A stretch of 29,812 nt of DNA from contig JBFXII010000001.1 of NCBI GenBank assembly GCA_050176095.1, positions 1 to 29,812 of the forward strand. Reading direction: 5' to 3'. Origin of the DNA: Desulfomonilaceae bacterium (GTDB taxonomy: Bacteria > Desulfobacterota > Desulfomonilia > Desulfomonilales > Desulfomonilaceae). Shown piece after piece: positions 14,600 through 18,022 of this stretch; within the stretch, counting starts at the first letter, position 1, and each line of letters starts with the position of its first letter. The notes below the pieces were generated by a model, which was not told the DNA's origin, ran no database searches, and saw only the letters and a program-made list of their open reading frames with translations. Made by a program: the position numbers and the translations under genes.

Positions 14600-15844
14600 T
14601 TATTCTTGGCTGGATGTATCTAAAGAACCTGACAGATTATAAACCTCTACAGCATTTTTTATATTTTTGAACGTCATTGGCCCAAGCTTCTCGAGTCGAA
14701 AAAGACCATTAATTCTCCTGGCTGTCTCTGGTCCAACCAGAATTTGGCCAGGCTCAGATACCGCTGCTAGCCGCGCAGCTAAATTCGTCAAGGGTCCGGT
14801 GGCAGTAAACGTTGTTCTGGCTCCGGCCCGACCCTGAAATCGACTGGTTCCAACAGAAGCTGCTCCAGAATTCATTCCCATATGAATGTTAACGGGCTGA
14901 AATCTACCTTTCAGCTCTATATTTATTGATTCAGTGCGTTTTCGTATTCCTAGTGCTGCTCTGGCCGAGTTGATGGCATTTTTGCCAGATGGACCCTGGA
15001 AAATTACCATCAAACCATCTCCCGCCGTTTCATTTATGTCACCATCGTATTGATATAAGATATCTAAATAACTGGAGAAATATTTTTCAATTACAAAATT
15101 TACCTGTTCTTGAGTCAATGACTCACTAATATGGCTGTAACCCGCGACGTCTATGAATAAAACCGTTACATCAACTTCTCTCTTTTCCAGAGAGGGAGCT
15201 AAAGGATCTTTTTCGACGATTTTCTGCACGGTCTGAGGCACAAATGGCCTAAGATGTCCTAGAATTTGGTCTAATGTAATTTTTTCCTGGGCAACCTTCC
15301 AATGTTTCCTGGCATTCATGATCACGTTCGAAGTAAGTTCAGCCAAATCTTTCAATAGGACAAGGTCCATCTGTGAGATTTTACATTCTTCTTTGGCTAT
15401 GACGTCTAGAACTGCAAGCGCTTGTCCACCATGATAAATCGGAAGAGCTACCTCGGAGAGCCCGTCAGTCGGCTCATCAGTCGTCACTAGCTCGCATCCG
15501 GTCGAATCCATTTCAAAGCATATGTATCCATTTTTTTTCTGAAGAGCGTTATCGACCGCAAAACGCCCCCGTTTGCACAACTGGCAGTTGATGTGGCTGG
15601 AATTCATAGCGCAGCGTAGAGGTCTGGTATAGTTAGCCGCTTCAGGATCTAAAAGCAGCAGACAGACTTCCTTGACATGAGGCAAAGTGGCTTTGGCTTC
15701 GTCTCTAATCACTTCAAGAATTGTGCTGATGTTAAGTGACGAAGTAATTTTCATGGCCACCCTGAACAAATTGTCAAAACGCCTCTGATACAGTTTTTCA
15801 GATGTCTCTAATCCTTCAGCGGAATCTCTTCCAGCATTGGTCAT
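14600..15844 (-). CDS. GAF domain plus class III nucleotidyl cyclase, with a guanylyl-cyclase-like specificity residue
   Basis: N-terminal GAF-like region (ALPIYHGGQALAVLDV), a helical linker, and a cyclase domain with D232 (LFIDVAG), D276 (ETAGDGLM) and N354/R358 (TNLAAR). Confidence 0.88.
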   Translation of the reverse strand: MTNAGRDSAEGLETSEKLYQRRFDNLFRVAMKITSSLNISTILEVIRDEAKATLPHVKEVCLLLLDPEAANYTRPLRCAMNSSHINCQLCKRGRFAVDNALQKKNGYICFEMDSTGCELVTTDEPTDGLSEVALPIYHGGQALAVLDVIAKEECKISQMDLVLLKDLAELTSNVIMNARKHWKVAQEKITLDQILGHLRPFVPQTVQKIVEKDPLAPSLEKREVDVTVLFIDVAGYSHISESLTQEQVNFVIEKYFSSYLDILYQYDGDINETAGDGLMVIFQGPSGKNAINSARAALGIRKRTESINIELKGRFQPVNIHMGMNSGAASVGTSRFQGRAGARTTFTATGPLTNLAARLAAVSEPGQILVGPETARRINGLFRLEKLGPMTFKNIKNAVEVYNLSGSLDTSSQE

Positions 15845-15982: not shown

Positions 15983-16486
15983 ATGACGAACCAATCAAAA
16001 AGTGACCATATTCTCATTAGAGAAGGCTCAATCATAGTTAGGCTACTGCAGTCAGAATCTGAGGAACCGACATTGGAGTTTTACGATTTCAAAACGGGAG
16101 TTCGGCTCAAGAAAATTTATCCCCCTTTAAAACCTGTGGAACTCGAGAAAGGATGCAGGATTACTTTGGAAGCGGCTTGCGCTATCATAAAAAATCTTTG
16201 TTTTTCTGATGATCCTGAAACCTCAGAATCTGGAAAAGTAGTTACAATTCTAGAGGCACGTCAACGAAAACTTGATTCAGTGGTAGCTGATTCAATTTTG
16301 GATCAGGCACGCATTATAGCTAATATTTTAAGGGATTACGTTGAGCTAGCTGATCATTGCAACAAGGAAGAGCGATTTTGGTTGTCTCAACAGATCCTTA
16401 CTACGGTTCGAAAGATATCAGGAAGAGAATTGTCTGAGATTCAGGAAATCGTAGAGTGGTTCAATAACATTCAACCGAGGAAATAA
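15983..16486 (+). CDS. Hypothetical protein (167 aa)
   Basis: Open frame in an otherwise unoccupied interval, followed 2 nt later by the next ORF. No recognisable motif. Confidence 0.65.
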   Translation: MTNQSKSDHILIREGSIIVRLLQSESEEPTLEFYDFKTGVRLKKIYPPLKPVELEKGCRITLEAACAIIKNLCFSDDPETSESGKVVTILEARQRKLDSVVADSILDQARIIANILRDYVELADHCNKEERFWLSQQILTTVRKISGRELSEIQEIVEWFNNIQPRK

Positions 16487-16488
16487 AC

Positions 16489-16785
16489 ATGGACAATGAA
16501 CTCAGAAGTGGCGCCGAGACTAAACCGGCTGTTAATGACAATCAAACAAATTCCGAATATGACCCGAGAGACCTGCCAACTCCATTCAAATATAAGGCAT
16601 TGGCAGCCCTTATTTTGATCGTGCCATTTGGTTTTTTGATTGATGGAAGCCAGACTTTTTTTCTAGATTTGGAATGGGAATATATATCCAAAATGACTGT
16701 ATTGATTGGTCTGATTCTTTACATTGTCGCCGTCGGACAATTGGCCGCACGAATTCGAGACTGGAAGGAACGACGATCACTCTGA
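16489..16785 (+). CDS. Small membrane protein with two predicted TM helices
   Basis: GAGG SD. Hydrophobic segments ALAALILIVPFGFLI and MTVLIGLILYIVAVGQLA, and a basic C-terminus. Confidence 0.7.
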   Translation: MDNELRSGAETKPAVNDNQTNSEYDPRDLPTPFKYKALAALILIVPFGFLIDGSQTFFLDLEWEYISKMTVLIGLILYIVAVGQLAARIRDWKERRSL

Positions 16786-16909: not shown

Positions 16910-18022
16910 ATGCTTAAACTGAACTGGCTTTCCAGGTGTTTTCTTCTGTTGCTAGTGTTTCTATTTTGTTTGGAATCTGGATGTGGTTTTTGTCATGCCC
17001 TTGACAATGCGACCACTTGCTTCGAACAGGGAAAGTCTTATCTAAAATCAGGAAACTATCAGACTGCCATTGAAAAGTTCTCAAAGACGTTGGATCTGCT
17101 CGACTCTAACAAGAAAAACTCCCATGTCGTCAAGTTGGCTCGAGCCCAGGCCTATTACCAAAAAGGAGACGTGAAGAATTCCTGGAGGGATCTTGTTTCA
17201 GTTCTAAAATCTGATGAATTAGAGGGGGAAACACTCGCATCAGGTCTTCATCTTCGAGGAATGTTGAACTTGAAGAAGGGAATCCAGAATGAGGCTATCA
17301 GTGATTTCAGCGCAGCCATAAAAACTCCCCATAGCAATGATTCCTTACGATCGGCCTCGTTTATAAATAGAGCTGTGACTCTCATAAATGTGGGATCAGT
17401 AAACCGCGCGCTGGGTGATCTGAATCGTGCAATCGAATTGGACCCCTCTTCTGCTTTCGCATACGCGGCGCGAGGTTTGGCTCATTTGAGACATGACAAT
17501 TTGTCTCACGCCAGAAAGGATGCTGAGCTAGCGCTACAACTAAAACCAGATTCCCAAACAAAGAAGATCGCCACGAGAATAATTGAAGAACTGACTGTTG
17601 TTACTTATGGCGCCAACGGAGTCGCAGTTTCCATGAGTGAAGAGGGCCAAGTTTTTGTACAGTTAAAATTTGGCAAGAATGGAGCTCCTCATAGGTTCCT
17701 TTTAGATACCGGAGCTACCCATAGTTTAGTCGATAAATCTCTGTTGAGGGAAATTTCAAAACAGGTTGAGGTCAGAGAAGTTGGAAAGGGAGTTGTGAGC
17801 ATAGCTGATGGGACATCATTGCCTGTGACCAAGTATTTGATAAAAGATGTTTATCTTTATAATGTGCCTCTTGGTGAGATTCAAGTTCAGACCTTTGACA
17901 AGAAAACCAGGAAAGTCACCAATCTTCTTGGAGCAGGAAGCTTATCAACTTTGGCCATTATTATAGACAGTTCAAAAAGGAAGGTAGAAATCCGCAATAA
18001 ACTGGTCCAAAATACCCACTGA
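16910..18022 (+). CDS. Exported TPR-repeat protein fused to a retropepsin-like (clan AA) aspartic protease
   Basis: Hydrophobic N-terminal signal and several TPR-like repeats (e.g. AYAARGLAHLRHDNLSHARKDAELALQL). Catalytic FLLDTGATHS and a C-terminal NLLG motif. Confidence 0.8.
   Translation: MLKLNWLSRCFLLLLVFLFCLESGCGFCHALDNATTCFEQGKSYLKSGNYQTAIEKFSKTLDLLDSNKKNSHVVKLARAQAYYQKGDVKNSWRDLVSVLKSDELEGETLASGLHLRGMLNLKKGIQNEAISDFSAAIKTPHSNDSLRSASFINRAVTLINVGSVNRALGDLNRAIELDPSSAFAYAARGLAHLRHDNLSHARKDAELALQLKPDSQTKKIATRIIEELTVVTYGANGVAVSMSEEGQVFVQLKFGKNGAPHRFLLDTGATHSLVDKSLLREISKQVEVREVGKGVVSIADGTSLPVTKYLIKDVYLYNVPLGEIQVQTFDKKTRKVTNLLGAGSLSTLAIIIDSSKRKVEIRNKLVQNTH

Follow-up and report, generated by a model that had tools for sequence, protein, structure and literature searches.

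A GAF-coupled class III nucleotide cyclase of a Desulfomonilaceae bacterium with a glutamate/threonine base pocket, a candidate for cGMP formation from an uncharacterised clade

Class III adenylyl cyclases (AC) carry Lys and Asp/Thr at the two positions that specify the base, and guanylyl cyclases (GC) carry Glu together with a variable second residue, Cys, Ser, Thr, His, Ala or Gly (PMC4215837, PMC6005667). In the structure of RhGC with GTP, the contact of this Glu to N1/N2 is the main guanine-specific contact, and the change of Lys to Glu abolishes AC activity in other cyclases. Bacterial signalling by cyclic GMP (cGMP) is documented for a handful of enzymes. In Cya2 of Synechocystis sp. PCC 6803 (2W01, fusion 6FHT) the pocket and catalytic residues are Glu488, Gly562, Asn569, Arg573 and Lys608; a supporting Lys aids the Glu, while the Gly and a Tyr shape selectivity (PMC6005667). 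The sequence rules that separate GC from AC are unreliable: XC_0250, a verified GC of Xanthomonas, is without any of the canonical residues, thus the rules have to be seen as weak in bacteria. Here we describe a gene on the reverse strand of a 29,812-nucleotide contig stretch (the window) of a Desulfomonilaceae genome. It codes for a protein of 414 amino acids (aa) with a GAF-type sensor domain followed by a class III cyclase domain, and it presents Glu and Thr at the two specificity positions. An earlier note on this DNA had proposed a bacterial cGMP synthase on the basis of this pocket.

The product is an intact class III cyclase with complete catalytic residues. The Pfam family PF00211 matched residues 222-405 with an E value of 3e-15 and 56.6 bits versus a cut-off of 21.9, and a separate profile search of the genome yielded identical coordinates. 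The residues D232, D276, N354, R358 and K393 are invariant and aligned with their catalytic counterparts in solved enzymes; R343 is likewise invariant across the family. A residue-to-codon script reproduced all residues and codons that the earlier note had given for the four catalytic residues D232, D276, N354 and R358, which it had called intact, and for E272 within D-I-N-E-T-A-G-D-G and T347. The span 14771-15151 covers D232 to R358 of the open reading frame (ORF) 14600-15844 (-), with the N354 codon at 14785-14783 and the R358 codon at 14773-14771 (-), and the literal motif E-T-x-G-D is present. The AlphaFold2 (AF2) monomer model had a mean predicted local distance difference test score (pLDDT) of 72, the cyclase domain reached mostly 80-96 with lower values around the active-site loops. 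In Foldseek comparisons this domain superimposed on CyaB, CyaC and Cya2 with a template modelling (TM) score of about 0.85, normalised by target. These predictions are best explained by a class III nucleotide cyclase that is soluble and competent for catalysis. The enzyme is probably a homodimer with two symmetric active sites, because all catalytic residues sit in one chain. NCBIfam gave only matches far below threshold, no named curated family fitted the protein, and the structure matches in Swiss-Prot had at most 25% identity, without a close reviewed protein.

The pocket positions were assigned from phmmer alignments against all chains of the Protein Data Bank (PDB). CyaB of Pseudomonas aeruginosa (3r5g, E 2e-21) ranked first, followed by Cya2 (2w01, E 6e-16), 6fht and CyaC of Spirulina (1wc0/1wc1). 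From the first metal-binding Asp to the G-D motif, the alignments to the solved cyclases were free of gaps. Opposite E272, CyaB and CyaC have Lys, Cya2 has Glu and 6fht has its engineered Lys; the placement of E272 at the purine-specifying position, as claimed in the earlier note, is thus borne out by gap-free alignment to CyaB, CyaC and Cya2. T347 precedes a conserved Gly by three residues and N354 by seven in a stretch that is likewise gap-free, and it pairs with Thr in CyaB and CyaC and with Gly in Cya2. It falls within the set of second-site residues of GC (Cys, Ser, Thr, Ala, Gly, His). In total, E272, T347, N354, R358 and K393 are the counterparts of Glu488, Gly562, Asn569, Arg573 and Lys608 of Cya2. 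The positions of all features are compiled in Table 1.

Table 1. Features of the cyclase gene, all encoded on the reverse strand; nucleotide positions refer to the window.
Feature	Position	Strand	Basis
Whole gene, 414-aa GAF + class III nucleotide cyclase, stop codon included	14600..15844	-	ORF list, translation, Pfam, homologues
Class III cyclase catalytic domain, residues 222-405	14630..15181	-	PF00211, PDB sequence matches, Foldseek
D232, first metal-binding Asp (codon GAC)	15149..15151	-	alignment; invariant
E272, first base-specificity position (Lys in AC, Glu in GC; codon GAA)	15029..15031	-	alignment, conservation
D276, second metal-binding Asp	15017..15019	-	alignment; invariant
T345, position supporting the first specificity residue (Asp in CyaB/CyaC, Lys in Cya2)	14810..14812	-	alignment, conservation
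T347, second base-specificity position	14804..14806	-	alignment, conservation
N354-L-A-A-R358, transition-state Asn and Arg; A357 = Tyr position of Cya2	14771..14785	-	alignment, conservation
K393, aligns with the phosphate-binding Lys (Lys608 of Cya2)	14666..14668	-	PDB alignment and table in PMC6005667; invariant
GAF-type sensor domain, residues 38-175	15320..15733	-	Pfam GAF_2, homologue annotation, AF2
Conserved Cys cluster C61, C78, C87-x2-C90, C109	15518..15664	-	57-homologue alignment
Helical linker and transducer-like segment, residues 176-221, D-x-I-L-x-H-L-R-P-F-V-P-x-T-V-Q-K-I-V	15182..15319	-	AF2, conservation

The Glu/Thr pocket is conserved far beyond the window. More than 1,900 matches to the protein were present in a protein collection clustered at 90%, with full-length relatives being 55-86% identical; between families of the phylum about 60% identity is retained. 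Among 57 homologues aligned at full length, D-I-N-E-T-A-G-D-G-L-M was essentially invariant: E272 and T345 were present in 57/57, and position 347 was Thr in 53 and Ser in four sequences. A scan of GTDB species genomes, for which the linker segment served as search pattern, revealed at least 575 loci. Statements on loci in this text cover the best 80, all of them from metagenome-assembled genomes (MAGs) of Thermodesulfobacteriota labelled as Desulfomonile, Desulfomonilaceae, Syntrophaceae, Desulfobacteraceae, Desulfarculaceae, Desulfatiglandales or Thermodesulfobacteriota. The closest locus had 98% identity and belonged to an uncultured Desulfomonile sp., and several genomes had two to four copies. 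Glu and T-x-T/S were kept in 80/80 loci; one locus ends early, hence the T-x-T/S motif was complete in 79/80.

A HMMER search with the catalytic domain only against 1.84 billion representatives obtained 168 clusters (50% identity) at E <= 1e-30. For 150 listed proteins of these clusters, 151 domains were aligned and surveyed for the pocket residues. Glu occupied the first site in 137 of these nearest domains and the E/T pair was observed in 127, with E/A, E/S or E/G pairs in nine; Lys at the first site was found in 0/151. In a maximum-likelihood tree of 75 catalytic domains, the E/T group formed one clade with a support of 100/99. The Cya2-like E/G (and D/G) domains made up a clade of their own (99/98), and the Lys-type domains fell into several others. 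This monophyly indicates long-term selection for a non-Lys pocket. By alignment and tree, Glu is a long-fixed trait of a distinct lineage, due neither to a recent mutation nor to common ancestry with Cya2. Judged from these surveys, Glu at the first site is genomically common, and the gene is no isolated oddity, being typical of a large clade. We assign it to an uncharacterised class III cyclase clade marked by Glu / Thr-x-Thr. The domain architectures in the clade comprise Ser/Thr kinase-AAA_16-GAF-cyclase proteins of about 1,700 aa, FHA-GAF-cyclase, dCache-HAMP-cyclase, receiver-cyclase and PDZ...GAF-cyclase.

The comparison with described enzymes places the protein between known types. With Cya2 it has in common the Glu at the E272 position, the same Asp, Asp, Asn, Arg and Lys residues, the homodimer-type organisation of bacterial class III cyclases and the fold. 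The identity is however only about 22-23% (E 5.9e-16), the tree separates both in well-supported clades, and instead of the supporting Lys, the second-site Gly and the Tyr before the catalytic Arg, T345, T347 and A357 are present. Also the sensors differ, a membrane CHASE2 domain in Cya2 (PMC6005667) versus a GAF domain here. Membership in the Cya2 family was therefore rejected: the protein differs from Cya2 in three out of four pocket features, and the two sequences are not closely related. The class IIIb enzymes CyaB (3R5G) and CyaC (1WC0) are the top matches by sequence and fold and have the second-site Thr and the catalytic residues in common with the protein, CyaB at 28-29% identity. They are proven producers of cyclic AMP (cAMP) and possess Lys in place of E272 and Asp in place of T345. 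Membership in the Lys/Thr class IIIb AC was rejected as well, the Thr being the only common pocket residue. The only assayed enzyme we found with the same Glu/Thr pair is engineered, Ma1120 K101E/D157T of M. avium. Both K101E and K101E/D157T increased the GC activity of Ma1120 and decreased the AC activity; for the double mutant the increase was 2.4- to 4.3-fold (236-429%) (PMC4215837). It is an artificial mutant of a Lys/Asp enzyme on an unrelated scaffold without the catalytic Asn, and by kcat/Km it prefers ATP. The view of the earlier note that the Glu/Thr pairing is atypical is correct among characterised enzymes, and its statement that verified bacterial GC are few agrees with the literature.

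Our favoured reading, based on the pocket sequence, is that cGMP is the main product or is made alongside cAMP; we assign to it a probability of about 0.5. The N1-H and the 2-amino group of guanine would donate hydrogen bonds to Glu272, with Thr347 and Thr345 lining the opposite side of the pocket. Such a guanine-type pocket makes cGMP, as main product or together with cAMP, the most likely output. As to the input, the state of the Cys-rich GAF domain, a bound metal, an Fe-S centre or a thiol redox state, would set the cyclase activity in the anaerobe, and the signal would reach the homodimeric cyclase through the long linker helix and the conserved segment taken as transducer. Both the use of GTP and the sensed signal are what we infer.

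Several observations weigh against cGMP formation. The Glu/Thr mutant of Ma1120 has a kcat/Km of 3.16 for ATP versus 0.227 x10^6 per s per M for GTP, thus an about 14-fold higher value for ATP. The Lys, Gly and Tyr accessory to Glu in Cya2 are replaced by T345, T347 and A357, all conserved. Of all solved structures, the AC CyaB is nearest in sequence (E 2e-21), and Cya2 ranks below it (E 6e-16). Neither a curated family nor a reviewed protein or solved structure from the databases searched falls inside the clade, and the literature searched contained no assay of any clade member. Neither three homologue contigs nor a clustering of flanking ORFs at the 80 loci revealed a recurrent effector or receptor gene. 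A canonical phosphate-binding cassette is present in one of the eight cyclic nucleotide monophosphate (cNMP)-binding domains of the genome, and its R-S-A does not discriminate cAMP from cGMP. Finally, a Lys-type cyclase was found neither in the window genome nor in a congeneric genome of 99% completeness; if the cell uses cAMP, it may thus have to come from a cyclase without this Lys. Glu/Thr alone is no predictor of GTP preference. The proposal of the earlier note, an enzyme that probably does not favour ATP and may form cGMP or another product than cAMP, is supported in part: the Glu does occupy the specificity site, but the ATP preference of the Ma1120 Glu/Thr mutant and the missing accessory residues of Cya2 call for caution.

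The same observations lead to the strongest alternative, an AC despite the Glu. The carboxylate would form a hydrogen bond with the 6-amino group of adenine, Thr347 would function as in the Lys/Thr class IIIb enzymes, and cAMP would be the product. We regard this as rather unlikely, although the kinetics of Ma1120 K101E/D157T, the proximity to CyaB and the class IIIb AC residue Thr at the second site support it. The genomic inventory bears on it from both sides. The window genome (G000) is a MAG of 3.0 Mb with 80% completeness. Its six class III cyclase domains present the first/second-site pairs E/T (the present gene), E/G (two domains), D/G, Q/A and D/L, so Lys-type domains were 0/6, and a class I cyclase was not found. 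In the 99%-complete genome G003 of the same genus, Lys-type domains were 0/7, with pairs from the same set, although cNMP-binding proteins are present in G000. Two further genomes of the genus, however, each encode one separate K/T cyclase beside Glu types, and the coexistence of both types in some genomes of the genus suggests different outputs. Against an AC stand further the loss or strong decrease of AC activity upon the Lys to Glu change in several cyclases, the 0/151 Lys count in related clusters and the replacement of the Asp, which accompanies Lys in CyaB and CyaC, by an invariant Thr.

An improbable alternative is a promiscuous or non-purine cyclase, in which an uncompensated Glu and two Thr would create a loose pocket that yields mixtures, or mainly cyclic CMP, cyclic UMP or another product. 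The Glu / T-x-T triad is indeed unlike any characterised enzyme, and specificity of class III cyclases is set during catalysis, not at binding. The PycC models of PADLOC matched with up to 56.6 bits, equal to the Pfam cyclase score; this match, however, reflects generic class III homology. No effector of the Pycsar type adjoins the gene in the window or in the 80 related loci, the sequence matches in the PDB at E <= 0.01 include no solved pyrimidine cyclase, and GAF-linker-cyclase is an architecture of housekeeping signalling. Membership in the Pycsar PycC group was rejected: the neighbours are smc and small ORFs, a recurrent effector is missing in 80 loci and the hidden Markov model matches are generic. 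In some relatives Arg residues contact the phosphates, and these are not found at equivalent positions here: A234 is at the position of Arg450 of Cya2 and H321 (His/Asn in the clade) at an Arg position of CyaB/CyaC. A catalytically silent or regulatory pseudo-cyclase, to which this might point, is very improbable given both metal-binding Asp, the Asn-Arg pair, K393 and R343 being invariant across the family and about 60% identity being kept between families of the phylum.

The sensor region is the second distinctive part of the protein. The GAF_2 match was weak (E 1.5e-4, 22.4 bits, under the cut-off of 28.6), but PF13185 is precomputed in most homologues, and the AF2 model showed a domain of helices and beta-sheet with a pLDDT of 55-84 and a loop (residues 79-89) below 50. 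This low confidence is expected if the site depends on a cofactor. C61, C78, C87 and C90 were invariant in the 57 homologues and C109 was present in 56. Position 77 is His in 56 of the 57 and Arg in the present protein. In 16 of the aligned homologues the N-terminus carries a rubredoxin whose two Cys knuckles are intact, and PF00301 was found in 17 of the best 120 of more than 1,900 matches. The five conserved Cys and the rubredoxin fusions suggest a GAF domain that senses metal, an Fe-S centre or redox state. Between sensor and catalytic domain, AF2 predicted a long helix (residues 158-196) and a second one (204-211). The joining segment I-L-x-H-L-R-P-F-V-P-x-T-V-Q-K-I-V is almost invariant in the family; we take it to be a cyclase transducer element. 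A similar architecture, a GAF domain N-terminal to a class III cyclase with a helical linker, is known from AC of the Anabaena CyaB1/CyaB2 type, whose GAF domains bind cAMP via a motif of the NKFDE type and whose catalytic pocket is Lys-type. In contrast, a pattern search found no NKFDE-type cNMP-binding motif in the present GAF domain, which has the conserved Cys instead, with rubredoxin fusions in its relatives.

If cGMP is the product, the consequences reach beyond this gene. We regard it as a possibility, though less likely than not, that the Glu / Thr-x-Thr clade represents a major unrecognised lineage of bacterial GC, with a redox-coupled subfamily in Desulfobacterota and a signalling led by cGMP. 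Kinase-STAND, FHA, Cache-HAMP, receiver and GAF domains would then serve as inputs to this lineage, whose size at the 50% identity level is at least about 130 clusters. In its Desulfobacterota subfamily, which includes the present gene, a sensor of Fe-S, metal or thiol redox state (a Cys-rich GAF domain, in some members with rubredoxin) would control the formation of cGMP in strict anaerobes. If the Cya2-type paralogues described below are counted in, cGMP and not cAMP would be the main cyclic mononucleotide of these organisms. Formation of cGMP combined with redox or metal sensing would connect redox sensing with this nucleotide in anaerobes that reduce sulfate or dehalogenate, for which no cyclic mononucleotide signalling was described in the literature searched. 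This literature also contained no characterised bacterial Glu/Thr cyclase and no work on cyclic nucleotides in Desulfomonile or deltaproteobacteria. Should the enzyme be an AC, on the other hand, nature would offer an exception to the Lys/Glu rule. The clade bears on the question whether Glu without the accessory residues of Cya2 suffices for GTP selectivity, and one biochemical test on it would classify thousands of sequences.

The genome has a better candidate for cGMP synthesis. Two Glu/Gly cyclases with the supporting Lys are encoded on contigs C144 (1232-1774 (-), L003) and C13 (1051-1518 (+), L004). The C144 paralogue of about 730 aa matched Cya2 (2w01) with an E value of 3.7e-59 and is by sequence the strongest cGMP-synthase candidate of the genome, much stronger than the present gene. 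The earlier note knew of no described cGMP signalling in the lineage; the literature searched agrees, but the genome encodes these two Cya2-type candidates.

Possible receivers are eight proteins with a cNMP-binding domain: a CRP-like regulator, a Ser/Thr kinase, two sigma54-AAA-ferredoxin proteins, two CBS-DUF294 proteins and two HEAT proteins. A search for cNMP-binding proteins with cGMP-type pockets had been suggested in the earlier note; cNMP-binding proteins exist, but the sole canonical cassette is neutral between both purines. None of the eight domains identifies the messenger, so this route was rejected, and the single CYTH protein of G000 is likewise uninformative on the messenger. 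A gene for a cNMP-binding domain near one of three other clade members was without canonical cassette and provides no messenger information. The kinase (G000:C142:2914-4503 (+), L132) is a protein of 530 aa with a cNMP-binding domain followed by a Ser/Thr protein kinase domain, an architecture like that of PKA/PKG. Its cassette, F-G-E-L-A-L...R-S-A, is the canonical one, and the protein is a possible receiver of the cyclases' product. The two sigma54-AAA-ferredoxin proteins (G000:C60:6151-8787 (-), L134; G000:C2:4166-6793 (-), L136) of about 880 aa combine a cNMP-binding domain with a sigma-54-interaction AAA+ domain and 4Fe-4S ferredoxin-type domains, an unusual combination.

In the window, smc is located downstream of the cyclase gene and two small ORFs are arranged divergently upstream, an order shared with close relatives only; synteny, including smc and znu, is confined to these. 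The small ORFs, 15983-16486 (+) and 16489-16785 (+), code for 167 and 98 aa without Pfam match and are conserved in only five to eight close loci. They are followed by a gene (16910-18022 (+)) for a protein of 370 aa with an N-terminal hydrophobic leader, tetratricopeptide (TPR) repeats and, at the C-terminus, an aspartyl protease domain of the retropepsin-like type (PF13975/PF13650). Hybrid histidine kinases flank 15 of the 80 loci, probably a generic domain cluster.

Other pockets and gene arrangements were observed among the cyclases. In the genome G008, which belongs to the class of the window genome, two cyclases that exceed 1,100 aa (L111, L118) contain T-V-N-E-M-T-G-D-G and E-F-K-A-V-G, thus a Glu/Lys pair. 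This pocket is non-canonical, the charges being apparently swapped between the two sites. Members with the kinase-AAA_16-GAF-cyclase architecture were located downstream of a CMAS-type methyltransferase gene and near an amine-oxidase/NAD_binding_8 gene. These cases originate from L140:73-12011 and an ENA contig of sample ERZ25072999, which are unrelated metagenome contigs; the methyltransferase, amine oxidase and cyclase genes may form a recurrent cassette. On the ENA contig the kinase-AAA_16-GAF-cyclase is divided into two genes.

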